From contig JADLBD010000221.1 in assembly GCA_020847975.1 (NCBI GenBank), positions 1,930 through 65,929 of the forward strand: DNA of 64,000 nt, given 5' to 3'. This stretch comes from Bryobacterales bacterium (GTDB lineage Bacteria > Acidobacteriota > Terriglobia > Bryobacterales > Bryobacteraceae). This document shows positions 24,803 through 64,000 of the stretch, one piece after another. The first letter of the stretch is position 1. Every line of letters begins with the position of its first letter. The position numbers and the translations under genes were made by a program. The notes beneath the pieces are model-generated. The model was not told the DNA's origin and did not search any database. It saw only the letters and a list, made by a program, of their open reading frames with translations.

Positions 24803-24990
24803 GTCTAGGTCTTTATCTCCCAATCATTTAGAGAACTTGGTGTCCACCTTGGTGGCCGCTCACAATCGGGCCACGAGGTGGGATCTGTGTTCTCAGCCCG
24901 GCATCCACGACCGACCCAAACCCACATCGCCCTGAGACATTGGAACCCTACCCTCGTGCCCGCTCATACTGAGCCCACGAGGTGGAACCC

Positions 24991-27797: not shown

Positions 27798-27808
27798 GAT
27801 CCCTTGAA

Positions 27809-32079: not shown

Positions 32080-32273
32080 AGACTCTGCAAGCTTCGCTCC
32101 TTGCGTCGGGCAGTTCTGGACTAGATCCCGTGAACGTTTCTGGGTTGATTGCAGCATCTACCGCGAAGACGCAAGCGCCGACATGTTCAAGAACATTCTT
32201 CGGGTCCTCGCTGCGCCACATATGCGGACCAAAACTAGAACGGCTTCCGCCGACGGTGACCGGTATCGCGCTG

Positions 32274-32615: not shown

Positions 32616-32808
32616 CGGTGACTCAACGCCTGTATGAACCAAACGAGGGGGACGCACGTCGTTTGAGGGCGAAGACCGAACGGTGCCGGGAGGCTAAACG
32701 AAAGTATGCTTCGGCGCGCGGGAAGAATGCCCCAGGTGTGCTTGCCAGAAGTGACCCAGGCAATCCATAGCTGAGTGTCCGAACCCCACATGGTGACGAT
32801 GGATCACC

Positions 32809-36706: not shown

Positions 36707-37798
<1,092 letters not shown>

Positions 37799-41374: not shown

Positions 41375-43414
41375 GTGCGGCGTGATTACCAAGCGACCAG
41401 TCCGCTCCTCTGGGTAGCGACGCAGTTCGGGCGATTTCTGGGCGACGGATACAGGGAAATCCGCGGGCTCATCACTTCAAACGCGCCGGACAATCTCAAG
41501 AAGGCGTTCACGGGCAGCATGGCTGCGTTGATTTTAGCCCTGCTGACTGTGATCGTGATCGCCTCCCAGCTCCATCCTGCCGCTGTGATCCTCGCCGTTG
41601 TCTGTGTCCTGCTCATCGTGTATGGGAGGAGTCTCTTCCGACGGCTGGCGCTGTTTGCCGGCTACTTTCTGTGTGGTTTTGTGCTGTTCATTGGGGCCGG
41701 GCTGATCACGACGGTTCCGCTTGAGAAGAGCTATCCACTCCTGGCCAAGGCAGTCGCTGTTGGGTTGTTTGTCGTGTTGTGCCTCGTGATTCCAGCCCTG
41801 CTGTCCATGAGACCGAGGCAGCAGATCGTTTCGGGTGGTGGAAGATGGGCCTCAAGTGGCGACCAGTTGACGAAACCCGCTCTTACCTTTGCCGACGTCG
41901 GAGGCCTGGAAGAGGCTAAGAAGCAGATCCGCGATTTGGTGCTGGCGAACCTGAACGGGAAGAAGTTCGGCCAGTATGGCGTGTTCAGGAACGGCATTTT
42001 GCTCCATGGTCCGCGAGGAACGGGGAAAACGTTCCTGGCGGAAGCAACTGCGGGCGAGTTTGGATTGAAGTACTTGTATGTTTCGGCAGCGAGCTTAGTT
42101 GGCCGGTACGTTGGGACTACAGAAGGTAATATCGAAGAAGCTTTTGCGCGGGCTAAGGCAGAGCGTCCCGTAATTTTATTCGTCGACGAAATCGATGCTG
42201 TTGGGACGAAGAGACAACAGCTTGGCGAAGCTGATGACACAGGTGGGGCGGCGCGAATGTACAACTCGACCACGAATCGGTTGATGGGATGCATCGATGA
42301 AGCCCGTAAGACTGCTGGCGTCGTGCTCATGGCGGCGACGAACTTCTACGATGGCTTAGATCGAGCTCTGATCCGGGAGGGACGTTTCGATCTTCATGTT
42401 CGGCTCGATCTGCCCAACGAAGAAGAGAGGACTCGGATCTTTGAGGCCCAGTTGGCCAAACGGCCATCGGCCCGGTTTGATGTCCGAGCGCTCGCGAAAA
42501 AAACGCCGGGATGGAGCGCCGCCAAGATTGGCACCTTGGTGGATCGGGCGGCGTTCTTCGCGGCCGAAGGGCAAAGGAAGATCGAAGAGCGGGATCTAGC
42601 ACGAGCCTTAGCAGACACTGGGGGCAAGGACCGCGCCGCCTTCAAAGAAGTCGAATGGGCGGACGTCGTTCTGTCCCCTGATACCGAGGCGGACCTCCGG
42701 AACCTGGTTCGGTTGATGGATCCGATCTACGGAGCAAGGCTCAATCTGGCCGCCCCGGCCGGGCTGCTGCTGATCGGCCCTCCGGGAACCGGAAAGACCA
42801 TGATCGCGCGCCTGATCGCGACGCAGACGAACCGGAGCTTCTACCCGATCACGGCCGCTGATATCCTCGGCGGGGCAACCGGCGCATCCGTAAAGAAGCT
42901 CGCCGAACTCTTTGCCCGGGCGAAAGAGAACAGTCCGTCGATCATCTTCATCGACGAGATGGATGGCCTGTTGCCCCGCAACAATGGTTTTCAGTCTCAG
43001 CACGACATCCAACTGGTCGAGCAGGCGAGGAGTCTCATCAGTGAGCTTGAGCCACAGCACAATGTATTCCTGATCGGTACGACGAACCACCTCGACAGCA
43101 TCGACGCAGCCATCCTTCGTGGAGGCCGTTTTTCCGAAAAGATCGAAATCGGCACACCCCACGAGAGCGGCTACCAGCGGCTGCTGAGAAAGCACCTGGA
43201 CGGCGTCCGGTTGGTTGACGGGCTGTCGGTAGAACTGCTGGTTGAAAGGCTGAAGGGCATTTCACCGGCCGATCTGGAAGCCATCTGCCATAGCGCCAAG
43301 CGCATGGCGATGAGGCGAATGGCGGAGGACGCCGAGGAGTTGCCTCCGCTCATCTGGAACGACTTCACCGAGGCGATGAAGCGGGTTCAAGTTCAGTTTT
43401 CTAAGAGATCCTAA
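41375..43414 (+). CDS. Membrane-anchored tandem AAA+ ATPase (two classic-clade AAA modules, CDC48/FtsH-like, no protease domain)
   Basis: GTG 41375 follows AAGGAG. About 4 N-terminal TM helices. D1: GILLHGPRGTGKTFLAEA...VILFVDEIDAVG...VLMAATNFYDGLDRALIREGRFD. D2: GLLLIGPPGTGKTMIARL...IIFIDEMDGLLP...VFLIGTTNHLDSIDAAILRGGRFS. Confidence 0.85.
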   Translation: MRRDYQATSPLLWVATQFGRFLGDGYREIRGLITSNAPDNLKKAFTGSMAALILALLTVIVIASQLHPAAVILAVVCVLLIVYGRSLFRRLALFAGYFLCGFVLFIGAGLITTVPLEKSYPLLAKAVAVGLFVVLCLVIPALLSMRPRQQIVSGGGRWASSGDQLTKPALTFADVGGLEEAKKQIRDLVLANLNGKKFGQYGVFRNGILLHGPRGTGKTFLAEATAGEFGLKYLYVSAASLVGRYVGTTEGNIEEAFARAKAERPVILFVDEIDAVGTKRQQLGEADDTGGAARMYNSTTNRLMGCIDEARKTAGVVLMAATNFYDGLDRALIREGRFDLHVRLDLPNEEERTRIFEAQLAKRPSARFDVRALAKKTPGWSAAKIGTLVDRAAFFAAEGQRKIEERDLARALADTGGKDRAAFKEVEWADVVLSPDTEADLRNLVRLMDPIYGARLNLAAPAGLLLIGPPGTGKTMIARLIATQTNRSFYPITAADILGGATGASVKKLAELFARAKENSPSIIFIDEMDGLLPRNNGFQSQHDIQLVEQARSLISELEPQHNVFLIGTTNHLDSIDAAILRGGRFSEKIEIGTPHESGYQRLLRKHLDGVRLVDGLSVELLVERLKGISPADLEAICHSAKRMAMRRMAEDAEELPPLIWNDFTEAMKRVQVQFSKRS

Positions 43415-43618
43415 CGATCGCCTCGTCTCCTTTTCCCCAGATCTGCTTCTCCCTTTTGACCTCGTCAAGAGCCCATTAGGAGACTTTTGAAAACAACGGG
43501 CGGTTTGCTCTATTCTGCCTCCACGATCTGGTAGCCGCTTTCGGGCCCGGGCTTTTCCGCCGGGTCTTCGGTGCGGAGACCAGCGCTGAATGCCAGTCAC
43601 ATGGAGGTTAACCGCACC

Positions 43619-45203: not shown

Positions 45204-45566
45204 ATGGCATTAAACATCACCCCAGTTCACCGAAATCTCCACACAAGAGTGAGCTTCCTCTATCTGGAATTCGAAGACTGGTTCGTCGTCATCGGCCTGG
45301 CAGCTCTCACCAACATCTTTGGTCGTTGGATTGATCGCCACGTATTCGGAATTCCGATGAACGTGTTTCTGCAATATATCGTTCCCGTCCTGAGCATCCC
45401 ATTTCTCATGCTGTTCAAATACGGAAAACCGCGAGGCTATCTGAAGGACTTTCTGATCTGGCACACCAAGCCTCGGATCTACTGCGGACTTGAGCCGGAT
45501 TCGGTAATGAAGCTCGACTACTTCAAAGAGGAGAGGATCGATGCCAACGACTATCGAACAGCATAA
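45204..45566 (+). CDS. VirB3/TraL-like small membrane protein
   Basis: 120 aa with two TM helices (FVVIGLAALTNIFG / FLQYIVPVLSIPFLMLF). It sits immediately upstream of VirB4 and overlaps it by 26 nt, the canonical VirB3 position. Confidence 0.45.
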   Translation: MALNITPVHRNLHTRVSFLYLEFEDWFVVIGLAALTNIFGRWIDRHVFGIPMNVFLQYIVPVLSIPFLMLFKYGKPRGYLKDFLIWHTKPRIYCGLEPDSVMKLDYFKEERIDANDYRTA

Positions 45567-48198
45567 CGCGTCCCTTCACCAGCCAGCGTTTTCCGAGTTG
45601 CTGCCGGTGCGCGACATCTTGCACGACGTGATCATCCGAACGACCGGTGCTCTAGTCGCGGGCTATGAACTCACTGGCATCAACTCGTATTACCACAGCG
45701 ACGATGGACGGAACCGGACAAAACTGGCGCTCGAGGCGCTGATCCGGTCACTGCCCGAACGATCCATGCGAATGCAAGTGCGCTTCGAGATTGCCGAAGG
45801 GCTTGGCGATCTGCGAGAGCGATATCAGCAGCAACTCCGGAATCAGAATCCGACATTGTTGGCGCTCGATCGCGTCAGGATGGACGCCTGGAGGAAGAAG
45901 GAGCAAGAAGGCTACTATCTGCTGCCGCTCCTGCATGCCTACTTCCACTGGAATCCTACAATTCATCACGAGCTTCCCGGTGCGGCTTTCGGCAAGGCAG
46001 TGACGAAGCGCTTCAACCTCGACGCCTTTAGCCTTTCTGCGAACAGATGCATCCAGCGAACAGCGCGCGAGCACGAGGATGCTTTGGCCGAGTTCGGTTC
46101 CATCCTCTCCGGTGTCGAGCAGACGTTGAGAGCGACGGGCATGGGAGTTCGGCGGCTTACGGACGCAGAGATCTTCCTCGAAATGAAGCGTGCCCTGAAT
46201 CCGCTGTTGTCAGATCGCGCCCCGCTTCGGCGGCCGGAGGCCTCACTGCAACATCGTAGCGCGCGGGACCAGATCGTCAATACGAACATCGAACACGAGG
46301 AAGAGACCTACATTCGAATCGGTGGCCTCCTATACTCGTTCATCAGTTTGAAGGACCTGCCCGATGCCACCTTTCCAGGGATACTGCGCGATCTTGTGGG
46401 CCTCGACTTTCCGATCACGGTCAACACCGATGTCATGATTCCGGACCAGGCGGCGATGATCAAACACTACAAGGGTCGCTTAAAGAAGATGCAGGCCGCC
46501 CAACGGGACTCGCATGGCGGGTACCGCATCGACATCGATGCGCAGGTGGCACAGCGCCAGCTAATCGAAACACTCGAGAATCTAATCGCGAGTTCGCTCA
46601 AGACGTGTCGCACCAGCATGGTGATCGGTATCCGTACGTCGCAACCCGTGCAGAGCCACCGGGACCTCGCCGAACAGGAGCGGGTCTTGTCCGACAGGCG
46701 ACAGAAGGTTCTGTACACGGTCATGCAGATGAACGGAAGCCGGGGGCTTCCTGAGGATTTGGCAAAGCGGCGGTTGTTCATCGGGGGTCTTCCCGGTATG
46801 AGCGAAGAGAATCAGAGGGAGAATGACTGCCTGACCGTGCATGCGGCCGACCTGCTGCCAATGGAGACTTCCTGGCGCGGCACGCCGCAGTCGCCGCTGA
46901 TTTTGCTCGACACCCCTCAGCGTCAACTCGTGCCTTTCTCTCCGTGGGATTCATCGCTCGCGGACGCGAACCTGCTAATCATAGCGGCATCAGGCGGGGG
47001 CAAAACCTTCATGGCGATGTTGTTCTTGCTGATGATGGCTCGACTGAAACCGTTGATCTCGATTCTTGAGCGTGGCGACTCGTACCGTCCCCTGGTGGAG
47101 TTGATGGGTGGGCGTTCGATCGAGGTGGACCTCGAAGGAAGCGTAACCCTCAATCCCTGGGACCTGGCTCCGGGTGTGACGACTCCCGGAAAGGATAAGA
47201 TCGCCTTCCTAAAGAATCTTACCCGCCACATGATCGGGGACAGCCCGAATTCTGACACGGCCCTACTCGACAACCTGCTCAGCGAGGCGATTAGCCGCAC
47301 CTATAAACGTTGCGCAATCCGGCACAGCAACCCGACGCCGACGTTCAATGATCTGCGAGAAGAGCTCCAACAATGGCGTGATGAAGAGCGCATCGAGCGG
47401 ACCGTGGAGGAAGCAAAACTGGCGGCTCTCAAACTCCGCGAGTGGACTGGCGAGAAGGGCGTTTACTCGAAGTTGTTCGACCAGCACACCACGCTGAAGA
47501 CGGACGCCGACTGGCTGTTCTTCAACGTGGAAAGGCTGAGTGACGACCCAAAGCTCGAAACTGCGATGAGCATGATGATTGCCCATGCAATGCAGGAGCG
47601 GGCCTCCGGCAGAACGGGCCAACACAGCATTACGGTTCTCGACGAGTGCTGGTCATTGCTGGACTCCAACGTCCTGGCTCCCGAAGTGGTGCAGCTATTC
47701 CGCACGGCGCGCAAACGCGGCGGTAGCGTCTGGGGCATTTCGCAGACCCTCGAAGACTTCGTCGGAACAGACACGCAGCCGCGTATTCACGGTCCCGGCA
47801 TTGTCCGTAACGTTTCGACGAAAATCATCGGCCGACAGCCGGGAGACGTGAGCCCGCTTGCGACTCATCTCGCGCTGAACCAAGTGGCGTTGGACGAGAT
47901 CAAGCACTTTGGAGCGCCCCGGAAGGGACGGAGCGCAGACGTGCTGCTGGTAATTGGCGAGAAGGCGGAGACCACGCAAACGATTCGTCTCGTGCCAACG
48001 CCAGTCGAGTATTGGGTCTGTACGACGTTCCCGCGAGAACGCGCCTACCGAGCCTATTGCTTTGCCAATCACCCGACTCGACCTCCGTTGGACGTGTACC
48101 AGGAACTCGCTCAAAGGTTTCCAAACGGACTCGCGGACGTGCCGGCGCTTGCCGAAGAGCTATCGGGTGCAGTGACCGGTGTGGCCGCGCAGAGGTAA
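45541..48198 (+). CDS. virB4: VirB4/TraC/TrbE-family T4SS ATPase
   Basis: 885 aa. Walker A: LLIIAASGGGKTFMAM. Walker B: ITVLDECWSLLD. Also ...FRTARKRGGSVWGISQTLEDF. The N-terminal domain pattern LPVRDIL.D.VIRT..GALVAGYEL.GIN is typical of VirB4 family proteins. Confidence 0.88.
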   Translation: MPTTIEQHNASLHQPAFSELLPVRDILHDVIIRTTGALVAGYELTGINSYYHSDDGRNRTKLALEALIRSLPERSMRMQVRFEIAEGLGDLRERYQQQLRNQNPTLLALDRVRMDAWRKKEQEGYYLLPLLHAYFHWNPTIHHELPGAAFGKAVTKRFNLDAFSLSANRCIQRTAREHEDALAEFGSILSGVEQTLRATGMGVRRLTDAEIFLEMKRALNPLLSDRAPLRRPEASLQHRSARDQIVNTNIEHEEETYIRIGGLLYSFISLKDLPDATFPGILRDLVGLDFPITVNTDVMIPDQAAMIKHYKGRLKKMQAAQRDSHGGYRIDIDAQVAQRQLIETLENLIASSLKTCRTSMVIGIRTSQPVQSHRDLAEQERVLSDRRQKVLYTVMQMNGSRGLPEDLAKRRLFIGGLPGMSEENQRENDCLTVHAADLLPMETSWRGTPQSPLILLDTPQRQLVPFSPWDSSLADANLLIIAASGGGKTFMAMLFLLMMARLKPLISILERGDSYRPLVELMGGRSIEVDLEGSVTLNPWDLAPGVTTPGKDKIAFLKNLTRHMIGDSPNSDTALLDNLLSEAISRTYKRCAIRHSNPTPTFNDLREELQQWRDEERIERTVEEAKLAALKLREWTGEKGVYSKLFDQHTTLKTDADWLFFNVERLSDDPKLETAMSMMIAHAMQERASGRTGQHSITVLDECWSLLDSNVLAPEVVQLFRTARKRGGSVWGISQTLEDFVGTDTQPRIHGPGIVRNVSTKIIGRQPGDVSPLATHLALNQVALDEIKHFGAPRKGRSADVLLVIGEKAETTQTIRLVPTPVEYWVCTTFPRERAYRAYCFANHPTRPPLDVYQELAQRFPNGLADVPALAEELSGAVTGVAAQR

Positions 48199-50818: not shown

Positions 50819-51589
50819 ATGCTCTCAAGAAAACGACAGACTGACGGTAACCAAGAAATCCCCGACAAGGCTCGGTACACGAAGTACTACGAGCACGATG
50901 GCCAGCTTCGAGCCTATGCGAACCGGTCGATGCTGATGGCCGGACTGTTCGGGGTGATCGCTTTGGTCTCCCTCGGGTTTGCAATCTATGTGAGGCTGCA
51001 GCCAGCGACCGTCATTCGCGTCTCTGCGGACGGCGAAGCGACGGTAGTCGGCGCCAGACCTGCGAGCACTGGACCAGAGACGAGGAGCAGCTTGCTGAGC
51101 GTTCTGGCTGCCATGCCGGCGGGTGAGGCGGCGCCGACTGATATTGAAGGCCGTGCCGTCGTCAGGAAGTTTCTCGAAAGCTATATGCGGTACACCCCCA
51201 CGTCGGTCGACAAGAACCTGGCCGACGCGCTCAACATGATGACCGCCAACCTGCGGATGTACAGTCTCAATCTACTGCGGGACCAGGACTTGATCGGCAA
51301 GATCAAAGAAGAGCAAATCACCTCCTCGTTCAAGATTCGGTCCATCGAGCCGGTCCCTGGTCAGGCGTGGACGTTTCAGGCTTTTGGCGTAAAGGAAGTT
51401 CATCGAATCAGGAATAGGAGCGAATTCACGGATCGAATCGTTGGCAAGTATCACGTCCGGCTGATTCAGGAACGGCGAACGGAACGTGTGCCGAGCGGAC
51501 TGCTGGTCGCCGAGTACAGGGAAGAACAGATGGTCGGTGAAAAGGATACCGGACTTTTGCAGGAGTCAAGCCTCCTGGGGAGCCGGTGA
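50819..51589 (+). CDS. VirB8/TrbF-like bitopic protein
   Basis: 256 aa. Short cytoplasmic N-terminus, one TM (LMAGLFGVIALVSLGFAIYV), then an approximately 190-aa periplasmic domain (VVRKFLESYMRYTPTSVDKNLADALNMMT...). Topology, size and position fit VirB8; the sequence similarity was not verifiable by eye. Confidence 0.45.
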   Translation: MLSRKRQTDGNQEIPDKARYTKYYEHDGQLRAYANRSMLMAGLFGVIALVSLGFAIYVRLQPATVIRVSADGEATVVGARPASTGPETRSSLLSVLAAMPAGEAAPTDIEGRAVVRKFLESYMRYTPTSVDKNLADALNMMTANLRMYSLNLLRDQDLIGKIKEEQITSSFKIRSIEPVPGQAWTFQAFGVKEVHRIRNRSEFTDRIVGKYHVRLIQERRTERVPSGLLVAEYREEQMVGEKDTGLLQESSLLGSR

Positions 51590-52074
51590 TGGATTCTGCC
51601 GTCCCCGGTTTCAGCGAGAGGGCATCTCCGGATCGGGGGCCGGTGGGAGCGAAGCCAGCGCAATCTGGCGAAACAGCGTACCTGAGAGAGGACGCGACGC
51701 GGCCCGCAACTCGCAAGGGTGCGCGGGCCGCGAATGAGTTGAAAGGAGGCGATTCGATGGGGGCAGCAACGGAACCAACAACAAGCGGCCTTGCTGAGCC
51801 GAAGGCCCCGGCTGGCAAGAAGGAGCGCAGTCCCCAGCGCCGGCGACGGACCAAAACAGCGGAGCTTTCGACGGCCCGCTACTTTCTGATCAAGGCCTCG
51901 GGTAGCGACGGGCTCCAGCTCGGTCAGGAGGTCGCGTCGGAAAATGAAGCGCTCACCGCATCATTCCGAGCGAGCGGCAGCTACGCCGTGGTGACGGAGT
52001 GGAAGGCCAACGTCGATGTGAGCACGGGCGCGCCAGTGATCAAGAAGGAGGGAGTTCAGCACGAAAAGAAATAA
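51586..52074 (+). CDS. Hypothetical protein (start uncertain; alternative ATG at about 51757)
   Basis: 162-aa ORF with a disordered, basic N-terminal half and a compact C-terminal region (ARYFLIKASGSDGLQLGQEVASENEALTASFRASGSYAVVTEWKANV). Confidence 0.3.
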   Translation: MMDSAVPGFSERASPDRGPVGAKPAQSGETAYLREDATRPATRKGARAANELKGGDSMGAATEPTTSGLAEPKAPAGKKERSPQRRRRTKTAELSTARYFLIKASGSDGLQLGQEVASENEALTASFRASGSYAVVTEWKANVDVSTGAPVIKKEGVQHEKK

Positions 52075-52271
52075 CGTATTCATAACGGGCAGCACTGGCT
52101 TCATGCACGTAGGTGTGTAAGCGACCCGTAGCTCTGATACGGGAAAGTGCTGGTCGGGTTTCCACGCGAATCCTGGCCAGAGTTCTCACAAACCCTGGCC
52201 GCGGATAGCGAAGAGACCAATTCCAGCGGGCTCCTTGCTGTTCTGCCAACAGACGGAAAAGGAGAGTATCC

Positions 52272-52484
52272 ATGTTGAAGAACAAAATGGCGACACTACT
52301 CACAGTCGTTTCGGCAATGCTCATCAGCGCGGGCATGACCTGGCAACAGCGTCTGCTCTTCGTTGGCGGCATAGCGTTCGGTGTGGTGGTGGAAGCGCTC
52401 CCCAGTCTTGTGGATGAGCTGAAGGAACGCGTCGCCGAATGGCGGCGAATCCGGCAGTTCACCGTAAAGACCAAGGCGGCGTAG
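52272..52484 (+). CDS. Small membrane protein (70 aa)
   Basis: RBS AAAGGAGAG lies upstream. Two hydrophobic segments (ATLLTVVSAMLISAGM / LLFVGGIAFGVVV) and an amphipathic tail. Confidence 0.35.
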   Translation: MLKNKMATLLTVVSAMLISAGMTWQQRLLFVGGIAFGVVVEALPSLVDELKERVAEWRRIRQFTVKTKAA

Positions 52485-52585
52485 GTAGTAAAACAACCCG
52501 GTGACGGCTCTCCGAGCCTGGCACCCGGGAACTTGATTCAAGTTCACGGCAACAGGCGAAGGGAGGGCACCGGAGACGGCGCTCC

Positions 52586-52622
52586 TGTCTGTCTGTTGCT
52601 CACATTCAACAGAAAACAGACA
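52586..52622 (+). promoter_or_regulatory. Imperfect inverted repeat abutting the RBS of the polymerase-like gene
   Basis: TGTCTGTCTGTTG (52586-52598), an 8-nt loop, then CAACAGAAAACAGACA (52607-52622). The right arm runs into AAGGAG (52622-52627). Confidence 0.3.
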
Positions 52623-52634
52623 AGGAGATGCCCA

Positions 52635-55265
52635 ATGAAAACCATAGTTACGTCCCAATTGCCAGTTTTGGCGTTGGAGATCGATCAGGAAGGAACGGTA
52701 GCTCAAAAGAGCATGCAGCTCACGAGGCAGGGACAACTCGACAACACGTTGCTCGATGCCCTCTATCCGGGGATTCGAGTCGCGACCGTTGAGATTCCTG
52801 GCAGCGAGCTGGATGACTATGGGCGTGCCAAGGTGGAACAGGCTCTGGCGAAGTTCACTGTGGGTGGAGTGGAGTATCGCCTCATCGGCGCATCGGGCTC
52901 CGCGAAGAATGGCAAATACTACGCCGTGAGCAAGGAGTTCGAGAAGCCGATCGCCGAGCGGTTCCAGCAGTGGCCGGAAGCTGCGATCACCTACTTCGGG
53001 ATCTTGATCTCGCCCTGCAAAGTGCGGATCGAGGAACCGGACGTGCGGGTGCTCGTCGTGGAAGACCACACCGTCGGTACGAATGACTGCCGCGGCTGGA
53101 TTCGGCGTTCTCTGTTTGAAAAGCTGGGTCTCCCCGCGGGTCACTTCTACCAGTTCCGTCTCGCATTCAACCGGACTCAGGCCAAAGGCAGCTTCAAGGT
53201 AATGGAGAATGACGTCGCGGATCAGATCAGCGCCGACATCATCCTGCCTAAGAGCTCCATGAAGCCTGCGCTGCCGGAGAAGTCATCGTGGGTGAAACTC
53301 TGTTTCGGCGATGCGCAGATGTTTCGGGGCCCGATCGTTTTGGGTATCCGGGAGGTCTCGCGCGAGCTAGAGTACGAATCGAGCTACACGTTGTTGACGC
53401 ATGCTCCGGAGTCCACTATCGACCTGGAAGTCTTGCCGCACGCGCTCCAGCAAGTGCAAACACTCAAGACGACAGTCGAGGAGAACAACTTCGATGAGCT
53501 TTTTCGCCTTCTCGGGACCTCGAAAACCTCACGCCCGGTACGCGGAGACGAGGATGCGACGGAAGACGGAGAGTACACGTCCGCGGAGCGAACGGTTGTG
53601 GAGGCGGTGCTCAAGGCTGACGGCTCCGGCCAGTTGGTCAAGTTCCCCTTCATCAACAACCAGCTCCAGCGGATCCTGTGCCGGTGGGCGTACAAGCTGG
53701 CGACGGCGGGAGGGTTCAAACTTCCGGCCTTCGCGCTAGCTGACGACGGCTACCTGGTGCTCGACAACGGACGGGTCTACTCGGGTTCCGACTGGATGCC
53801 GGAGGGGCACGCCATCACGAGTCTCGGCTCGCGGCGCCTTCTCGAAGTGCGGTATCCCATTCGGGCGAAGGACGACCTGCTCCCTTTGAACAAGCTGGAT
53901 GGTCCGGCTACGGTGGCGTGGTTGATGAACGACCTGGCGCGGCAAGGGTGCTCGATGTCCGAGCCAGACGCCGTGGAGCGGATCGTCATCGGCCAGCTCC
54001 GCCTGGAACATACCATCACCCTTCACTCGACGACGGCGGCGAAAAACGGGGGCGACTACGACTTTGACACCGTCTGCGTGGTGGAGGAGAGCCGGTTTCC
54101 ACGGTGGGTCGAAGATCGCTTCAACCATCGCGAAACCTTCTCGAACGAGAAGGACAAGCGGAAGAAGAAGCGGTCGGCCTGGTGGAACCTGGCCCAGGTC
54201 GCGGTCTCGGCGAAGGGCAACGAAATCGGGATCATCACTGACCTGATGTCGTCGTGCCTGGCTTCCGGGCGCCCCGATCTGGCGGAACTGCTGGCGAAGG
54301 AACTCCAGGCAGCACTTGATGCCCTCAAGCACGGGACGATGCCGAACCAGGACGTGATTGTCGGTGTTCGCAAGCAGGTGATCACGGCGCCATGGTTGCG
54401 GTTGAAAGACGAGAAACGCGTTGGCGCCTTGCCAGTGCACCTGACCGTGCCCCCCACGGACAAGATTGGCAAGCTGTACAACGTGATTCGAAAAGAACTC
54501 GATGACTTCTTCAGCGATGTCCGGCCTCTGGCGGACTTCCGCGGCCTGATTGTGAACGGACAATTCGACCGCGAAATGTACAAGGAGGCGGGGCAGATCG
54601 CGACTGTCTACGGGGTCAACATCGGGTTGATCATGAAGAAGCGCGAGAAGTACCAGCAGGAAGTCGCGGACGCCCAAGCCGCCCTCAACGCGTGCGATCT
54701 GGACAACGTTGTGGAGCGGCGGAAGGCATTCAAGCGGCGCAACACGGCGAAAGCGGCGTTGCACTGGTATGAGGAACGCTCCCGCCAGGAGATGCGCAAC
54801 ATGATCCACCTGGTGCGGAAGTGGGCCGAACGGAAGTCGGCGAACGCGTTCGACTGGCTCGCCGCTCTCTATGCAATCACCTGCAAGGGGAGCAAGAGTA
54901 CAGGAAGTATCGTGTTCTACGCCTTTCCGCAGGAACTCGTCAACATGATCGCGGAGCGCACGGGTGGCCGTCCGGTCACCGTCGCAATTCCTGATCTGGT
55001 TGATGGGGACGTGTGCATCGACGACGACGGCAACGTGTATCTCGTCGAGCAGGTCGGCGACGGCCAAGGACAGATTCTAGAGAGGGAAACCTTTCTCATG
55101 CAAGTCACGAGGGATGGCGACCTAATTTACGATCACGGTCGGCCTCAACGAATCCATGCAATTGAGTTTGAGGCTGGACGGGCTGAAGTGCGGGATGGGA
55201 GGCTTGAGCTTCCTGGTTCCAGGCTGAAGCCGAAGGTTCAAAAGCCGAAGCTGGACAACAAGTAG
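52635..55265 (+). CDS. Large protein with a double-psi-beta-barrel-polymerase-like catalytic motif (cellular RdRP / YonO-like candidate)
   Basis: ATG 52635 lies 7 nt after AAGGAG (the ORF track has 52533). ...RRLLEVRYPIRAKDDLLPL... is followed by ...TAAKNGGDYDFDTVCVVEE (D-x-D-x-D). Compare the DbDGD signature of cellular RdRPs and NADFDGD of the RNAP beta-prime subunit. Then ...VAVSAKGNEIGIITDL.... No Walker, HNH or relaxase motifs were seen. Confidence 0.45.
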   Translation: MKTIVTSQLPVLALEIDQEGTVAQKSMQLTRQGQLDNTLLDALYPGIRVATVEIPGSELDDYGRAKVEQALAKFTVGGVEYRLIGASGSAKNGKYYAVSKEFEKPIAERFQQWPEAAITYFGILISPCKVRIEEPDVRVLVVEDHTVGTNDCRGWIRRSLFEKLGLPAGHFYQFRLAFNRTQAKGSFKVMENDVADQISADIILPKSSMKPALPEKSSWVKLCFGDAQMFRGPIVLGIREVSRELEYESSYTLLTHAPESTIDLEVLPHALQQVQTLKTTVEENNFDELFRLLGTSKTSRPVRGDEDATEDGEYTSAERTVVEAVLKADGSGQLVKFPFINNQLQRILCRWAYKLATAGGFKLPAFALADDGYLVLDNGRVYSGSDWMPEGHAITSLGSRRLLEVRYPIRAKDDLLPLNKLDGPATVAWLMNDLARQGCSMSEPDAVERIVIGQLRLEHTITLHSTTAAKNGGDYDFDTVCVVEESRFPRWVEDRFNHRETFSNEKDKRKKKRSAWWNLAQVAVSAKGNEIGIITDLMSSCLASGRPDLAELLAKELQAALDALKHGTMPNQDVIVGVRKQVITAPWLRLKDEKRVGALPVHLTVPPTDKIGKLYNVIRKELDDFFSDVRPLADFRGLIVNGQFDREMYKEAGQIATVYGVNIGLIMKKREKYQQEVADAQAALNACDLDNVVERRKAFKRRNTAKAALHWYEERSRQEMRNMIHLVRKWAERKSANAFDWLAALYAITCKGSKSTGSIVFYAFPQELVNMIAERTGGRPVTVAIPDLVDGDVCIDDDGNVYLVEQVGDGQGQILERETFLMQVTRDGDLIYDHGRPQRIHAIEFEAGRAEVRDGRLELPGSRLKPKVQKPKLDNK

Positions 55266-55346
55266 TATGCCTTCGGGGAGGTTTGGGCAACCGGACCTCC
55301 TCGGGTTTTGGCAGACGCAGGGAAAGTGACCGAAGGAGTACAGCCC

Positions 55347-56192
55347 ATGCAACGTACCGTGACCCTTATCCTAATCGCGACTCTGGCCGCATTCGGTCAG
55401 AAGATCGAAACACAGAAGCCGGATCGCAACAAGATCACGCGGCTGGGCACGACGCCTAATCATCTGAGCGTGATCGAACTCGGCGAGCCGGTCACCCGAG
55501 TAGCCGCCGGCAGTTCGTCATTCAAGATCGAATGGCGCGAAAACACGGTGTTCGTCCAGCCGCTCGAACCGGATGCGACGACCAACCTCTTCATATGGAC
55601 CGCTTCCGGCCGCCTCAGCTACGAACTGGTGCCGGCTGGCTCGGTCGAGCAGATGCACTTCGCAATTGACCAGGACCCGACAACGGTTCAGGCCAGGAAG
55701 ACAGAACCGGTCGAACAGGCGCCCGTTTCTCAACGACCGAAGGTACCCGCGGCCATGTTAATGGAAAGCACGCCCGTTAAGCTGGTTGGACCCTCGAGAA
55801 ACCACCAGAAAGTGGAGATCGTTCTACAGGACGTTTACCAGAAGGACGGCCGTGTCTACCTTCGGTATGCCATCGTGAACGGAGGGCGAACGGTCTACCT
55901 GCCCGCGACTCCGGAAGTGTTCAGACTGAACTCCCCTCGCGCACCGCAGTCGCTGATTCCACTGGCGAACAGCCAGCTTGCCAGCGGCTACCAACTCAAG
56001 TGGAACGGCGAGGCTCGGGTTCCCATCGTTCATACGGAGCTCCAGGTCCCAGTCGTTCGGCCTGGCCAAACCGCCCTTGGCCTTATCGCGTTCGACCTGC
56101 CACACTCCGGCCAACCGGAATTGCGAACGGTTGTGAAATTGGCGTTCCCGGCGGACGCGACCGGTAGCGTCAGTGCGGTATTGGTTCTGTAG
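55347..56192 (+). CDS. VirB9/TrbG/TraN-like protein (paralog 2)
   Basis: ATG 55347 follows AAGGAG. Signal peptide MQRTVTLILIATLAAFG. N-domain: ITRLGTTPNHLSVIELGEPVTRVAAGSSSFKIEWRENTVFVQPLEPDATTNLFIWTASGRLSYELV, the same pattern as 38328..39434. C-domain: VYLRYAIVNGGRTVYLPATPEVFRL. Confidence 0.5.
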   Translation: MQRTVTLILIATLAAFGQKIETQKPDRNKITRLGTTPNHLSVIELGEPVTRVAAGSSSFKIEWRENTVFVQPLEPDATTNLFIWTASGRLSYELVPAGSVEQMHFAIDQDPTTVQARKTEPVEQAPVSQRPKVPAAMLMESTPVKLVGPSRNHQKVEIVLQDVYQKDGRVYLRYAIVNGGRTVYLPATPEVFRLNSPRAPQSLIPLANSQLASGYQLKWNGEARVPIVHTELQVPVVRPGQTALGLIAFDLPHSGQPELRTVVKLAFPADATGSVSAVLVL

Positions 56193-56978: not shown

Positions 56979-58775
56979 ATGATTCGCGATTCTTATCCGG
57001 ATAGTTCCTACCGCGACCGCTCGTCGCTGTCGGCATCTCCAATCTTTGTGTGCACGGCATTGGCAGGGCTGGTTCTGTTCACGCTCTGGTTCCTCGGCAC
57101 GAAAGCCTACCATTTCACCAACCTTCAGATGGCTGAATGCCTCGTCTACTTTCTGCTTGGGATCGGCGTGCCGGGGATCACGATCTGGGTCTTAATAAAG
57201 CGGCGAGAGTGGAAGGAGAACCAGAGACGGTATCCGCCTCTGGTGATAAGCGCATCTGCGGACGCCAAGCATGTCAAGAAGGCATGGGACGAAAATGCCG
57301 TCGTGCTCGGCTACGACGTGCACGGGGCGCCTTGGCTGTGGCCGGATAAGGTGCGCGTCATGCAGGGGATCGTTCTGGGCATGACGGGCAGTGGAAAGAC
57401 GACGCTCCTCAAGAACATCATCACCCAGGATCTGGCACGGAGGATGGGACCGGCCGGAGATCGGCACAAAATCCCCATGGTGATCTTCGACGGAAAGGGC
57501 GACCTCGATTTCTTCTACGAGCTGCTGCCACACATCGCTCGCGCCGGCCGGCTCGACGACCTACGTCTCATCAACCCCGCACGGCCCGACCTCTCCTGCT
57601 TGTATAACCCCTTCCACACGACGGACGAGAACTATATGGCGCAAGTGAACATGGTGTTCGGGTCGTTCAACCTGCACGATGAGTTCTTCGCCAAGCACCA
57701 ATTGAACTACCTGGCCGATATCGTCCGGATTCTCCACTACACCGGTGTTCCCTTCAATTTCTACGACGTCATCGTGATGGCACTGGATGAGGAGGTGCTG
57801 AAAGGCCAGATCGAGAAAGCGCGCAAGCACATGCAGTCGGACCGGAACATCTCCATGCAGCGCGGCTTGAACTTTGAGATGTCGGTCCGGAACCTGGTCG
57901 AGTCGTTCAACGACCGCGAACGGGTGCCGAAGATTCAGGGTTTGCTGAACGAGTGCATGACATTTCTCGACGACGAGTTGTCGGTGATCACCGGCCCTTA
58001 CGAGGATCTGTTGTCGATCGATGACGTAATCGACCAGGAGCTGATCTTGTTTGTCACGCTGAACATCAACAAGAACACCGAGCCGGTTAGGGCACTCGGA
58101 AAGATGCTGCTCCAGAATCTGCAGCTCGTCGTCGGCAAGAGATATGAAAGTGAAGAGGAGCGGAAGCGCCAAAACCGACCGATTCTGAGCGTCGTACTCG
58201 ATGAGTTCGCGCCGTTCGGGTACCGGAATTTCGCCCAGATCTTGCAGACGGCGCGCGGCACCAACACCGCCTTCCTGTTCTCGATGCAAAGCCTGCCGCA
58301 ACTCCTTCAGGTCGGCAAGGGCTTCAAGGATGACGTTACGAGCGCTCCAAACACGAAGATCGCGATGCGCACGCAGGACGAGGAGACGTCCAGGTTCTTC
58401 ATCCGGGCTTCTGCCGAGCACACGGTGACCAAGCGGACGGTGTCGGTAGTGCGCGAACAGGTATTCGGCTGGGAGCGATTTCAGAAAGGTACGAGCGGCT
58501 CGGAGCGAGAAGAACGCGAGTACCGGGCCGAGGACGAACGGATCAAGAACCTGCCGAAAGGCCAGATGCAAATCCTCATGACGGACGACACGGAAGGAAC
58601 CTTGCACCGTCACCTACACGTGCGCACACCCCCAGACGTGGGACTTCAAGGACTTGACATGGAGTTGGCGCCACGGCTGCGGCAGTCCAGAGCGGACGCG
58701 CCGGGAGCGAATCTCCGGTTCAAGAACCCGGAGCTTGCGGCTTCGATTGGCCGACGGATGCAAGGACGGAGGTAG
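56979..58775 (+). CDS. virD4: Type IV coupling protein (VirD4/TraG/TraD family)
   Basis: 598 aa with two N-terminal TM helices. Walker A: GIVLGMTGSGKTTLL. Walker B: SVVLDEFAPFG. Also ...ARGTNTAFLFSMQSLPQL...NTKIAMRTQD, typical of the TraD/TraG coupling protein family. Confidence 0.8.
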   Translation: MIRDSYPDSSYRDRSSLSASPIFVCTALAGLVLFTLWFLGTKAYHFTNLQMAECLVYFLLGIGVPGITIWVLIKRREWKENQRRYPPLVISASADAKHVKKAWDENAVVLGYDVHGAPWLWPDKVRVMQGIVLGMTGSGKTTLLKNIITQDLARRMGPAGDRHKIPMVIFDGKGDLDFFYELLPHIARAGRLDDLRLINPARPDLSCLYNPFHTTDENYMAQVNMVFGSFNLHDEFFAKHQLNYLADIVRILHYTGVPFNFYDVIVMALDEEVLKGQIEKARKHMQSDRNISMQRGLNFEMSVRNLVESFNDRERVPKIQGLLNECMTFLDDELSVITGPYEDLLSIDDVIDQELILFVTLNINKNTEPVRALGKMLLQNLQLVVGKRYESEEERKRQNRPILSVVLDEFAPFGYRNFAQILQTARGTNTAFLFSMQSLPQLLQVGKGFKDDVTSAPNTKIAMRTQDEETSRFFIRASAEHTVTKRTVSVVREQVFGWERFQKGTSGSEREEREYRAEDERIKNLPKGQMQILMTDDTEGTLHRHLHVRTPPDVGLQGLDMELAPRLRQSRADAPGANLRFKNPELAASIGRRMQGRR

Positions 58776-60233: not shown

Positions 60234-61010
60234 ATGCGCTATGTGAAGGGAAGCATCGCTCTCAATGCCGTTAACGATCACGCCGTTCTGCGCCACGTCC
60301 TCAGGTGCCGGCACGTCTCACACGAGCAGTTGTGGCAGTTTCTTCAGCTCAACGGACACCTATGGCCGAGACGGACGCTCAACTGGCGCATACAGCGCCT
60401 GGTGGAACACGGACTCGTGGTCAGGTCCGACCTGAGCTTTGTGTCCGGAGTGCGCGTGTATACGATCTCGGATCTCGGCGCATCGTATCTGATCGGGACA
60501 GGGGAATCCGCTGCCCTGATGATCGGGAGCAAAGCGAATAACGTGGATGAGAACGCCGTACAGCATTCGCTCGACCTCAATGATATCCACTTGGCGATGC
60601 TTCGGACGAGGCAACTTGTGTCATGGAAGTGTGAACTTGAGATTCGGTCGCAGAACGAGTTTACGGGAGTGGGTTTCGCGAAGGACTACGACGCGATCGT
60701 TACCGTGAACACGACGGGTCAGGATTCGCAATTTGCCCTCGAGTACGAGCGCAAGCCGAAACAGCCGAAACGCTACTGGCAAATCCGTGAGCTGATCGAG
60801 AAGGAGACGCACGTAGATTGCGTGTTGTACTTGACGTCGACCTTTCACTTGCTGAGTTATGTCTCGCGCTTCTTCGAACGTAGCGGAAAGGCCGTGTACT
60901 TCGGAGTCCTCGATGAGTTTCGATTGCACACGCTGCAAACGAAAGTGATGGACAGTCGCCGCACGGTGACGTTCCCGCTTAGCACTGTGCTGCAAGCGAA
61001 CACGCGATAG
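60234..61010 (+). CDS. Replication-relaxation (Replic_Relax) family protein: winged-helix plus nuclease-like domain
   Basis: 258 aa. N-terminal wHTH-like: LRHVLRCRHVSHEQLWQFL...RRTLNWRIQRLVEHGLV. Then ...HSLDLNDIHLAM...DYDAIVTV...FALEYERKPK.. resembles my recollection of the PF13814-type pattern (H..........D....e.E....). It is the only relaxase candidate seen in the window. Confidence 0.55.
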   Translation: MRYVKGSIALNAVNDHAVLRHVLRCRHVSHEQLWQFLQLNGHLWPRRTLNWRIQRLVEHGLVVRSDLSFVSGVRVYTISDLGASYLIGTGESAALMIGSKANNVDENAVQHSLDLNDIHLAMLRTRQLVSWKCELEIRSQNEFTGVGFAKDYDAIVTVNTTGQDSQFALEYERKPKQPKRYWQIRELIEKETHVDCVLYLTSTFHLLSYVSRFFERSGKAVYFGVLDEFRLHTLQTKVMDSRRTVTFPLSTVLQANTR

Positions 61011-62879
61011 ACCTGGTGCTTTGTTCTCCTATTGCATGCCCATTGCCACACCCTTTGCCATACCTTTTGCCCGCCGCACGATCGCGGAAGCGGCTGGGCG
61101 TTCAATCACATAGCAATCTACTACCCGTGGTTTGGCATGTGTTGGGGTAGGCAAAGTAGTTGGCGGGTGCCTGCCAGGTTGTGGTGGCGAAGCCAGGACT
61201 GTGGAATGGCTGGGTTGAATGGTGGTCGCAGAGTGCGGCGCCGGTCTGTCCCGGTGAGCGGGAGTAGGACGAGTGTAGTGGCGCCGGCCGTGTTTGGGGA
61301 TGCGGGCGAGGGAGGTTACGGTGCGGGATTGGCGGTATGGGAGCGCGTGGTCGTAAGCCTGAGGGGGACTGCGAACTGCTCGTAAAGCAGAGACAAGTGG
61401 AAATAGACGGGGAGCAGATGGTTGATGAGCGCCGGTTCTTGGCTGAGGATAGTGACCAATGTCGCTTCGCGAATGGGGGCAGCCGAGTAGCGCGGTATTG
61501 TGCGATGTGCACGGCACGAGTTCCCGTAGCGAACGGGAGGGACTCGGCGCAGAGCGAGGTGAGAAGATGAGCGGATGTTGACCTTCAGGATGTTCTTCGG
61601 GCGCTCACGCTCCCTCCTGGAGAGTCCGCGCCGGTGTCTGAAGGGCGAAGTGGATCGGCGTGATATGGCGCCGCCGTAGGCTTCTTGACTGATTTCCTAC
61701 TGACTTCCCGCGTAGCACCCCGCCTGACTGACCTACTTCGAACAGCGAATTGCGACCCGAAACTTGGTGGCACCCCGTCGGCAAGGCAGCAACTTCCAGC
61801 CGTGTGCCGTCATGTCCTGCGACGGAGAGATCGACGGCGGTTGTCTGAAACGGGGAGAAACGAGACGAAGGACTCGGCGGTGTCTGGTCCGAGACGACGG
61901 CGGCGAAACCGGGATGAAGCGGATCTGGACAGAGGAAGTACGTGGAATCCGAATGCAATTGACGACCCTGGTGACAAGGCGGAGGGTATGCGGGTACGCA
62001 GTTGTGCGCGCGCCGCTGAACTGGCTGGCTCGGAGAAGGTGTGGACTGAGAGCGAAGTCAGGGGGACGGATCGCGCCAGTGACGGGACCGTAGTGCTCAG
62101 GTTCGGTAAGTAGCAACGCTGCAGTTCGTAGCAGGAGGTCGACTACACGCGCGAATGGCGTTCGAACTGGGGAGAGAGCGACGTCTTTCGAAACTGACAG
62201 GACACCGTTGTGATGCGGTTTTAGCGGATGGTGAGTGTGGTCCAAAGGGTAGCAGCGAGCGGATCAGCCTGGGGAGATCGGCGGCGGCGCGCCGGCAGTC
62301 GCGAACGCGCGTGAACAGGAACCGGAGGGAAGTGATGTCGTCTGTGCGCGGAACTGCGCCGTCAGATCCGATGGGAAGGCGCACTGGCCGAGCGATTCCC
62401 GCTATGACGCCGAGGGTCAATGCATCCACATCCCGCGGAGCGGGTAGCGCCAATTTGAGTGGTCCGACGGTCTGAGCGTGGTGACGGGCGGGCTTCGTGC
62501 GCCGTGTCGCTGCACATTCTTTCGTAAGAGCCCTGAGTGGGTAGTTCGTCCTCAATTGCCAGAGGCCGAGGCGGGTTGGACTCCCGCACGAAGGAACACA
62601 AATCCCGCTGGTGGATTTGGTGACGTTGGCAAGCGGTAGGGAATGGCGCGCCCGTCCCACAGGTGTTCTGGCACGACGAGTAGAAAGCGGTGACCGCGTA
62701 GTGAGGCGTGCGGTGCGGACTCAGGTGCATGAACTTGATGGGACGGCCGTGGAAGTCCGGACCGCGGTCGGGTGCAGAAGTGGTTGGATCGGTTAGCAAG
62801 AAGGCCCCGCAAGCTCAGAGCATGCGCGTCGGGCGGGTAGGAAATGCCAATTTGAGCAATTCAATGAAGGGAGCGAGGT
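61011..62879. other. 1.87 kb region without convincing ORFs and with a strong G>C skew on the + strand; candidate oriT/oriV or long non-coding RNA locus
   Basis: All six frames are broken by frequent stops, and the listed ORFs (60-187 aa) have Arg/Gly/Ser/Pro-rich nonsense-like translations. A hand count of 62221-62280 gives G 26 and C 10 of 60 nt, and similar G excess is visible along most of the region. Confidence 0.55.
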
Positions 62880-64000
62880 ATGCAAGATACAGCGACAACG
62901 AATGGAACACCGTCTCTGCCGGTGGCTCCGACCAATGGACAGTGGAGCGGCGGCGGCGTTCCGACGTTTGAGCCGGAACGGGTTCAGGCGTTTCTGGCAG
63001 CGCTCGAGCAGCCATTCGACCTATCCGAGATCAAATGGCGGGTGACCAACACGACCCAGGTTGGCAGCAGAAACGGACCCCGATACCGAGGTCAGATGTT
63101 GGCGTACGCCGATCCGCGCGCGTACACCGACCGGCTCAACGAACTATTCACGCCGTCGGGCTGGACACGGGACTACAACGTTCAAATGGTCCAGAACTTC
63201 GAGCGGAGGGAGCGCGGCGCGACAGAACGGACGATCACGGCAAAGATCGTGGTGACATGCAGGGTCACGGTCTATGGCTTAGGTACTCACACAGGACTCG
63301 GCGAGGAGTGGGCGGAGAACGACAACGCGGGCACGGCAGCGGAAGCTCAAGCGTTCAAGCGGGCGTGTTCGTGCTTCGGGCTTGGCCGCTATCTGTACGA
63401 TCTGGAAGGCCAGTGGATGGACCTCGATGAGAAGAAGCGCCCATTGGAGACGCCCAAGCTTCCCGAGTGGGCTCGCCCGCAGCGGCGTCAGAGCAGTGGC
63501 CAGAAGACTGAAAATGGCAACCACCGCGGCAACGGTCAACCGCAAGCTGGGAACAGTGGCGCCGCGAGAAGCGGCAGGGGCGGCTTGTACCGCGGGGAAG
63601 TGCTGGAGCACGTGAAGGTTCTCTGCGACAAGGTGGGCTTCAGTCTCTCGAAGAGCGTGCTGCGCGCCGTGGCCAAGGTCGAGGATCCTGACAAAATCTC
63701 TGACATGGTGAAACTCACGGCTCTGTTCGAGAAATTGCAGGACACAGACCGGGGCGTGGAGCGATTGCGGGCGGCTGTGGCAAAGGCTGGCGATCATCGG
63801 TACACGGCGTTGTGCCAGGAAATGAATCTGGCGAGCGACGCGATCGATGACATTCCGGACCGGGTGGTGCTTCGTCGGCTGGTGGAAACACTGGAGGGCG
63901 AAACGAACCGCGCCCAAACATCGAACGGTGGGGACAACGCCGCCGGGAGTGAAGCGCAGCCCGATGGTGCGGCGGTCCTGAGTGATCTGCGCGGCCGACT
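62880..64000 (+). CDS. Rad52/Rad22-family single-strand annealing protein (partial; continues past the window end)
   Basis: Not in the ORF track because no stop lies in the window. Manual translation from ATG 62880 (RBS AAGGGAG) gives ...FDLSEIKWRVTNT...GQMLAYADPRAYTDRLNELFTPSGWTRDY...AKIVVTCRVTVYGLGTHTGLGEE...NAGTAAEAQAFKRACSCFGLGRYLYDL. This is the Rad52/22 annealing-domain signature, followed by a G/N/Q-rich linker and a helical C-terminal region. Confidence 0.7.
   Translation, partial: MQDTATTNGTPSLPVAPTNGQWSGGGVPTFEPERVQAFLAALEQPFDLSEIKWRVTNTTQVGSRNGPRYRGQMLAYADPRAYTDRLNELFTPSGWTRDYNVQMVQNFERRERGATERTITAKIVVTCRVTVYGLGTHTGLGEEWAENDNAGTAAEAQAFKRACSCFGLGRYLYDLEGQWMDLDEKKRPLETPKLPEWARPQRRQSSGQKTENGNHRGNGQPQAGNSGAARSGRGGLYRGEVLEHVKVLCDKVGFSLSKSVLRAVAKVEDPDKISDMVKLTALFEKLQDTDRGVERLRAAVAKAGDHRYTALCQEMNLASDAIDDIPDRVVLRRLVETLEGETNRAQTSNGGDNAAGSEAQPDGAAVLSDLRGR

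Follow-up and report, generated by a model that had tools for sequence, protein, structure and literature searches.

A two-barrel RNA polymerase homolog encoded in the mating-apparatus operon of an acidobacterial family of integrative conjugative elements

An 876-codon gene that lies among the components of a type IV secretion system (T4SS) in a Bryobacterales bacterium (Acidobacteriota) raises the question of whether a mating apparatus can include an RNA polymerase of its own and, if so, what such an enzyme would do there. The gene is located in a 64,000-nt stretch of contig JADLBD010000221.1 (GenBank assembly GCA_020847975.1), the whole of which is referred to here as the window. It was earlier without annotation, and a sequence-only reading had proposed that it encodes a single-subunit polymerase of the double-psi-beta-barrel (DPBB) type, akin to the cellular RNA-dependent RNA polymerases (RdRPs) and to SPbeta YonO. 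Predicted fold and residue conservation support this proposal, and the protein is almost certainly a two-barrel nucleotide polymerase. In a large family of integrative conjugative elements (ICEs) of Acidobacteriota, its gene belongs to the fixed core of the operon for the mating apparatus.

At positions 52635–55265 of the + strand, one open frame runs through 876 codons without interruption, and translation confirmed it together with all the motifs that had been quoted from it, including GNEIGIITD. The ATG at 52635, rather than the TTG at 52533 upstream, is the right start, because a strong Shine-Dalgarno sequence, AAGGAGA, is located 7 nt ahead of it and homologs of the protein are 866–877 amino acids (aa) long. 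The putative catalytic motifs are found in LLEVRYPIRAKDDLLPL (aa 401–417), with VRYP containing R406 and P408, and in GGDYDFDTVCVVEE (aa 472–485), with GGDYDFD at aa 472–478. A lone D-x-D-x-D is not significant in itself, because 0.27 occurrences per protein are expected by chance when 59 of 876 residues are Asp, and the case therefore rests on conservation and fold. Conservation was followed in alignments of 23 close homologs (A1), of 23 distant acidobacterial representatives (A2) and of 34 sequences from both the acidobacterial clade and a clade on cyanobacterial plasmids, which share 17–48% identity with the 876-aa protein (A4). The parts of the protein, with the evidence for each, are as follows.

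52635–55265, + strand: single-chain, 876-aa homolog of two-barrel (DPBB) RNA polymerases (translation, conservation, predicted fold).
53022–53384, + strand: first (beta-like) barrel, aa ~130–250, with D151 (GTNDCRGW), Q173 and R175 (YQFR) and K184 (AKG), all invariant (secondary structure of the model, invariant columns).
53712–54089, + strand: second (beta-prime-like) barrel, aa ~360–485, with R406-Y-P408 and the metal-binding loop (model; HMM alignment to QDE-1).
54054–54068, + strand: D474-Y-D476-F-D478, predicted to bind Mg through its three Asp residues (which never vary in A1, A2 or A4).
54216–54242, + strand: GNEIGIITD, aa 528–536, a conserved helix past the catalytic loop in which G532 is invariant (alignments; inside a weak Pfam RdRP match).
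55137–55262, + strand: disordered and basic C-terminal tail, aa 835–876 (pLDDT <50).

Eight residues are reported as invariant in all two-barrel RNA polymerases (RNAPs), corresponding to D709, R738, K743, R962, P964, D1007, D1009 and D1011 of QDE-1 (Ruprich-Robert and Thuriaux, 2010; PMC2919709). Their counterparts in the 876-aa protein are D151, R175, K184, R406, P408, D474, D476 and D478; none of the eight varies in A2 (23/23), and seven of them, R406 being the exception, are also constant in A4 at identities as low as 17%. The check proposed earlier, whether the Asp triad and the R-x-P motif are invariant, thus has a positive outcome for the three Asp residues in A1, A2 and A4 and for P408 throughout; for R406 it holds in the acidobacterial family (A1 and A2) and not across the two clades of A4. 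Equivalence of the first-barrel residues to QDE-1 D709, R738 and K743 is assigned by motif, NDCRG, YQFR and AKG mirroring the RdRP motifs SDGxG, FQxR and KG. In the second barrel, R406-x-P408 aligns to ARSP of QDE-1 (R962 and P964), and the profile alignment places vRyP...GGDfDgD of the wider family on ARSP...GGDYDGD of QDE-1. The RdRP-type metal signature read from the loop stands in so far as a D-x-D-x-D with an aromatic residue is aligned to GGDYDGD, but the loop is DYDFD and not the canonical DbDGD; F477 is invariant in A1, and the cyanobacterial clade has DFDGD.

An AlphaFold2 model of the 876-aa protein, with 23 homologs as input (pLDDT 76.5, pTM 0.68), has the RdRP QDE-1 as its top PDB match in a Foldseek search (E 2.8e-12, probability 1.0, TM 0.45/0.43). 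The second match is P74-26 gp62, the non-virion RNAP of a Thermus phage (E 1e-7), which is followed by isolated DPBB domains, and the matches among viral models are the P23-45 homolog and proteins of crAss-like phages, so that the fold search recovered QDE-1, which the sequence-only reading had named, as well as phage two-barrel RNAPs. As an independent replicate, the model of a distant relative from a Pseudanabaena plasmid (pLDDT 85.8, pTM 0.77) matches RDR2 (E 9.5e-15) and QDE-1 (about 5e-14), as well as P23-45 gp64 (1.8e-10) and crAss phi14:2 gp66 (1.6e-6), with weaker matches to Pol IV, Pol II (Rpb1), vaccinia and bacterial beta-prime subunits. A comparison of the acidobacterial with the cyanobacterial-plasmid clade by hhalign shows clear homology (E 5e-70 over 644 columns, at a probability of 100%).

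Sequence profiles point to the same part of the protein. The Pfam RdRP family (PF05183) matches aa 472–572 with 12.4 bits (E 0.063), under its gathering cut-off of 23.8 bits; among 23 family members the strongest match has E 8.8e-4, the Pseudanabaena homolog scores 22.1 bits against the same cut-off and at the same site, and a precomputed PF05183 match is on record for two relatives. When PDB chains were searched by sequence, the 876-aa protein alone and the close-family profiles A1 and A2 gave no match, and the matches of the broader profiles A3 and A4 were confined to the catalytic loop of two-barrel RNAPs (with A4, E 0.008 for P23-45 gp96 and E 0.021 for QDE-1). NCBIfam, PHROGs and PADLOC returned nothing relevant for the protein, and no confident match to an unrelated family came from these or from Pfam. 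With Pfam and NCBIfam, neither a Toprim nor an AEP domain was found in it, and no described T4SS family (VirB1-11, Tra, Trb) matches it; surveys of T4SS gene sets list no polymerase, in agreement with the earlier statement that such an enzyme is not among the described T4SS components. From sequence and models, the predicted polymerase is catalytically intact and single-chain, and belongs to the branch of QDE-1, RDR2, SPbeta YonO, P23-45 gp64/gp96 and crAss gp66.

Related loci were collected by the polymerase gene itself, with one genome per species (GTDB species representatives), which gave at least 501 loci, and the best 80 of these were examined for neighbours. Nearly all of the 80 are from Acidobacteriota (Bryobacterales, Terriglobales, Acidiferrales and others), one being labelled Nitrospiraceae. 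In the protein collection, the close relatives number at least 1377, and the family has 851 clusters at the 50% identity level; every entry is unnamed or 'hypothetical'. In the window, the T4SS context that had been described is real, with matches to VirB4, VirB8-like, VirB9-like and type IV coupling protein (T4CP) genes. The operon is long and co-directional; its upstream part includes a MoxR-like AAA ATPase, SLT, a first VirB9-like gene, TrbI/VirB10 and a double-AAA CDC48-like ATPase, and three more conserved genes follow the coupling protein, the last at 60234–61010. The CDC48/VCP-like ATPase with two AAA domains (41375–43414) and the MoxR-like AAA ATPase (36710–37798) are unusual T4SS companions, and no VirB11-type ATPase turned up among the open reading frames (ORFs) of the window that were scanned. 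The polymerase gene is bracketed by the VirB8-like and the second VirB9-like gene, as had been said, with two small ORFs (51586–52074 and 52272–52484) also lying between the VirB8-like gene and the polymerase.

45541–48198, + strand: VirB4/TraC-type T4SS ATPase (P-loop_TraG, E 1.5e-16).
50819–51589, + strand: VirB8-like gene (weak VirB8 match, E 4e-4, under the Pfam cut-off; syntenic in 64/80 loci).
52272–52484, + strand: 70-aa hydrophobic ORF, probably a membrane protein (conserved in the closest relatives only).
55308–56192, + strand: second VirB9/CagX-like gene, directly downstream of the polymerase (E 3.9e-6, under the cut-off; syntenic in 74/80 loci).
56979–58775, + strand: type IV coupling protein, VirD4/TraG (above the Pfam cut-off; syntenic in 71/80 loci).

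The order VirB4...VirB8-polymerase-VirB9-T4CP-x-x-Replic_Relax is kept in the 80 loci wherever the contig suffices, and a 33%-identical homolog is found in the same gene order; recurrence beside VirB4, VirB9 and T4CP, which had been named as a check, was seen in every related locus long enough to show its neighbours. The identity of the polymerase to its homologs correlates with that of VirB4 (r 0.97), VirB9 (0.94), VirB8 (0.92) and T4CP (0.89). The polymerase is no recent insertion and has diverged along with the apparatus; it is co-inherited with the conjugative T4SS and is presumably co-expressed with it.

Outside Acidobacteriota, tblastn detected 20–25% identical homologs on 14 cyanobacterial plasmids, 7 of which are typed as conjugative, whereas neither a tblastn search of 50,697 phage records nor PHROGs yielded a homolog. 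A TrbI-like gene is located downstream of the Oscillatoria relative, MobC, a relaxase and other plasmid genes are found near the Nostoc relative, and a PriCT_2 protein is encoded near one relative of the cyanobacterial clade. Three metagenomic relatives of the cyanobacterial-type clade have as neighbours ArdC, SSB and UvrD, SSB and UvrD, and a T4CP, respectively. Giant proteins of 1400–1600 aa without a Pfam match are also encoded beside cyanobacterial-type relatives (L087:12415–16704, L088:12785–17551 and L081:1251–6140), the giant gene being just downstream of the polymerase in L087 and L088 and about 1.7 kb upstream of it in L081.

The DNA-processing genes of the element bear directly on what the polymerase could be needed for. 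Ordinary chromosomal genes extend up to glnD (22127–24715), and a tyrosine integrase comes next; at the other side, the T4SS operon ends in a candidate DNA-processing gene.

24982–26238, + strand: tyrosine integrase, likely the left end of the integrative element, with glnD just upstream (gene scan).
60234–61010, + strand: last operon gene, for a Replic_Relax-like protein that is helix-turn-helix-like in its N-terminal region and has DYDA...ALEYE..K as a conserved motif (BLASTP E 2e-21 to L085:17387–18220).
62805–64000, + strand: gene for a single-strand annealing protein of the Rad52/Rad22 family, which leaves the window at its end (tblastn, 66% identity to L008:11184–12560).

The L085 protein passes Pfam PF13814 (Replic_Relax) with 27.5 bits against a cut-off of 25.3, and the Replic_Relax-like protein is likely, as judged from these similarities, to be the candidate DNA-processing enzyme of the element; because an integrase, a T4SS operon and a candidate of this kind are combined, the element is regarded as an ICE. 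The L008 protein matches Pfam Rad52_Rad22 (E 6e-14), and the ORF listed opposite the Rad52-like gene (63279–63917, − strand) was rejected as spurious. At least 24 of the 80 sister loci have a gene for an AEP-TOTE-type primase 2–4 kb past the Replic_Relax-like gene and after the Rad52-like gene (for example, L047:19968–20927), and a further AEP gene (L086:6132–7247) is found in the locus of a 31%-identical polymerase relative. The window stops short of the position at which sister elements carry this primase; within the part of the element that the window covers, no Toprim or AEP primase is present and no classical MOB relaxase is in view. The sequence-only reading had seen no classical primase, MOB relaxase or other polymerase in the element; its argument from their absence is not supported, and an element lacking any DNA-processing enzyme was rejected in view of the Replic_Relax-like and Rad52-like genes and of the AEP primase in sister elements. 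For the same reasons, there is little force in the view that the polymerase stands in for a primase that is lacking.

Between these genes, 61010–62800 is a G-rich stretch of ~1.8 kb with no convincing gene and a GC skew of up to +0.47, which had been suggested as a template from which the polymerase makes an RNA. The stretch is not conserved in related elements, though its flanking genes are, and it is therefore unlikely to be a dedicated template; a polymerase serving this locus was rejected on that ground. A search of 51.5–64 kb with Rfam gave no match.

Signals in front of the polymerase gene are of two kinds, gaps and a structured leader. The gaps at 52075–52271 (197 bp) and 52485–52634 (150 bp) are indeed among the largest of the operon and flank the 70-aa ORF upstream of the polymerase gene, but they are not the only sizeable ones, since a gap of 156 bp exists at 43415–43570.

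52485–52634, + strand: 150-nt leader, conserved and strongly structured, with a 3′ hairpin that pairs with the Shine-Dalgarno sequence (minimum free energy −69.8 kcal/mol, z −6.8).

The sequence of the leader is near-identical in 12 close loci, with almost no covariation, and is absent from more distant loci; it contains GAACTTGATTCAAGTTC, a 17-nt near-palindrome with a single occurrence in the window, shared by no loci other than the closest 12. The leader might serve to switch translation or, on single-stranded DNA (ssDNA), as a hairpin signal. A scan for sigma-70 promoters and terminators around the polymerase gene showed nothing above expectation.

What, then, might a polymerase do in such an operon? 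In the model considered here, it would be made in the donor along with the T4SS and would synthesize RNA de novo on the element's own DNA, which is transferred single-stranded, so that RNA synthesis independent of the host would be possible while the element establishes itself in the recipient. Early transcription of element genes would be favoured over primer synthesis, and the polymerase may cross the T4SS with the DNA. That the enzyme makes RNA on transferred DNA at establishment is the likeliest of the explanations considered, and about as likely as not to be true. It is proposed because conjugation supplies ssDNA, because QDE-1 can use such DNA, initiating RNA de novo on short ssDNA templates (PMC9508822), because the phage two-barrel relatives, which are transcriptases of their own genomes, travel with the DNA in some cases, being injected with it (PMC10770324), and because conjugative elements are known to transfer primases with their DNA (PMC5512222).

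A polymerase delivered with DNA characteristically has its gene within the set that encodes the delivery machine, and the polymerase gene of this element sits among those of its delivery apparatus. Delivery through the T4SS is nevertheless a tentative suggestion, and it is rather unlikely that the polymerase is a T4SS substrate that is loaded in the donor, crosses with or just behind the strand and transcribes establishment genes from the incoming ssDNA. The basic, disordered tail may be a T4SS recognition signal; the net charge of the last 30 residues is +2 to +7 in 23/23 close homologs. This is only a hint, because the tail is not conserved in distant members, and a basic tail as a family-wide feature was rejected, the tail being confined to the close clade. 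The protein has no signal peptide or membrane segment in its sequence, and none is apparent in the model.

Several observations weigh against RNA synthesis on the transferred strand by this enzyme. Besides the loss of the basic tail in distant members of the polymerase family and the Pfam RdRP score below the gathering cut-off, the fourth loop position is Phe where Gly is near-universal in relatives, a repeat search across the element gave no convincing shared promoter-like motif, and the precedent of SPbeta YonO would, by analogy, suit a role in the donor equally well. The latter role is the main rival: an element-specific transcriptase of the YonO type may act on the donor side, where it would transcribe the transfer operon or other element genes after induction and make the T4SS independent of host sigma factors. 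The characterised prokaryotic and viral relatives are all DNA-dependent transcriptases of the genes of their own element, and the gene is located inside the operon, at two of its largest gaps and behind a conserved, structured leader, which would agree with such a role. However, no repeated motif fit for a dedicated promoter was found, and the ArdC, SSB and UvrD genes around distant relatives point to the stage of entry and establishment; a donor-side transcriptase is accordingly a possible but rather doubtful explanation. The de novo start of QDE-1 on ssDNA would also suit a conjugative primase that lays short RNA primers on the transferred strand for the DNA polymerase of the recipient, as an equivalent of RP4 TraC1 or ColIb Sog, and a priming role was proposed by Iyer and Aravind for RdRP-like enzymes of selfish elements, according to the summary in PMC3417536. 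The part of the element inside the window has no Toprim/AEP primase, but a bona fide AEP primase gene follows a few kb downstream in L086 and in no fewer than 24 of the 80 sister elements, a PriCT_2 protein is encoded near a relative of the cyanobacterial clade, and no characterised member of the clade is a replicative primase. Transcription is preferred to priming because of these AEP primases and because the window ends before the position at which they are found, and a function purely as a primase is unlikely.

A different template or chemistry is less likely again. The enzyme might copy RNA, yielding double-stranded, regulatory or anti-defence RNA, in line with the RdRPs that are its nearest structural neighbours, or might incorporate dNTPs as PolD does, in which DNA is made by a two-barrel core (PMC7708050); the change from Gly to Phe in the catalytic loop is unusual and could be accommodated in this way. 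The operon, however, has no partners of RNA interference (RNAi), CRISPR or defence type, PADLOC gave no match, and it is ssDNA, not RNA, that conjugation supplies, so that this explanation is improbable. Least likely of all, and very improbable, is a T4SS subunit that has lost catalysis, keeps the two-barrel fold and serves as a structural part or adaptor. The position of the gene among structural T4SS genes is what such a subunit would have, but even at 17% identity there is no change in the Asp triad, in the fourth Asp, in the two basic residues or in the Pro, and the protein, as noted above, shows neither a signal peptide nor a membrane segment.

Several further features of the element were observed to the left of the T4SS operon. 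At 24846–24994, two 45-nt direct repeats, 73% identical and 104 nt apart, lie just upstream of the integrase gene and extend into its start; the integrase might bind them, or they might form an attachment site. The whole 64-kb window contains no tRNA gene. Beside the integrase, a helix-turn-helix protein and an ImmA/IrrE-type metalloprotease are followed by a 'Beta protein' (PF14350) at 26700–28900, a typical regulatory/immunity module of mobile elements. At 32274–32610, an imperfect unit of ~30 nt is directly repeated four to five times at a spacing of roughly 50–100 nt, in a region of low third-position GC (ORFs 32235–33746, − strand) that may be foreign or a gene for a repetitive protein. 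An IS21-family insertion with an IstA-like transposase and an IstB ATPase (34161–36282) lies between the cargo region and the T4SS operon.

How the first genes are expressed and the second strand is synthesized in a new host is an active question in the study of conjugation, to which leading-region ssDNA promoters and transferred primases are the current answers. To our knowledge, the known routes all use the host RNA polymerase or Toprim/AEP primases. A two-barrel RNAP that is fixed in the mating operon of hundreds of elements of soil Acidobacteria points to a third solution, and the relatives on cyanobacterial conjugative plasmids carry the pattern into a second phylum. If RNA synthesis on the transferred DNA by a delivered polymerase is true, the enzyme would be to conjugation what the virion RNA polymerases are to N4, crAss-like and P23-45 phages, and an alternative to the ssDNA promoters of F-like plasmids, which depend on the host RNAP. 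The family is also a large, well-sampled bacterial branch beside the eukaryotic RNAi polymerases, which bears on the origin of those enzymes, and offers new small, single-chain RNA polymerases as possible tools.

RdRP-like polymerases in bacterial mobile elements are already known, and for the T4SS-embedded clade no prior report was found. About 50 RdRP/YonO-like proteins were described in firmicutes, cyanobacteria and a pair of CFB-group members (Ruprich-Robert and Thuriaux, 2010; PMC2919709), and homologs in 'novel selfish elements', often beside REase/URI nuclease genes and with RNase H fusions in cyanobacteria, were given a suggested primase role (Iyer and Aravind, 2012, as summarized in PMC3417536). 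The cyanobacterial-plasmid clade with DFDGD probably corresponds to the cyanobacterial group of these two reports, and the putative Replic_Relax-like gene may parallel the nuclease genes mentioned in that summary. The present family differs from both accounts in its occurrence in Acidobacteria and its fixed position in a T4SS operon, neither of which is mentioned in the available portions of the two reports, and in the role proposed, which is priming in the PMC3417536 summary. In the literature covered, no report ties a two-barrel polymerase to a T4SS or to conjugation or describes an acidobacterial clade; Iyer and Aravind (2012) is represented in this literature by the PMC3417536 summary only, so that a prior listing there is possible.

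Among characterised enzymes, QDE-1 and RDR2 are closest, being the top structural matches and sharing both DPBB barrels on one chain and the eight active-site residues. The loop of QDE-1, which takes ssDNA templates and starts de novo, is identical as GGDYD up to the fourth position; in contrast to QDE-1, the polymerase described here is bacterial, encoded in a conjugation operon, only 11–14% identical in sequence, under the Pfam cut-off, marked by DYDFD and without RNAi partners. The phage RNAPs (SPbeta YonO, P23-45 gp64/gp96 and crAss-like phi14:2 gp66) belong to the same fold branch and likewise serve the mobile element that encodes them. P23-45 gp64 is a non-virion enzyme, whereas gp96, a tape-measure fusion, and phi14:2 gp66 are virion enzymes that are injected with the DNA; in the present case the machine is a T4SS and not a virion, and delivery is a proposal. 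The transferred primases, of the Toprim type in RP4 TraC1 and R64 Sog and of the PrimPol/AEP type in Gram-positive bacteria, resemble the polymerase in being element-encoded enzymes of RNA synthesis that are tied to a T4SS and, in their own case, act on the incoming single strand. They differ from it in having an unrelated fold, and an AEP primase often coexists with the two-barrel polymerase in the elements described here.

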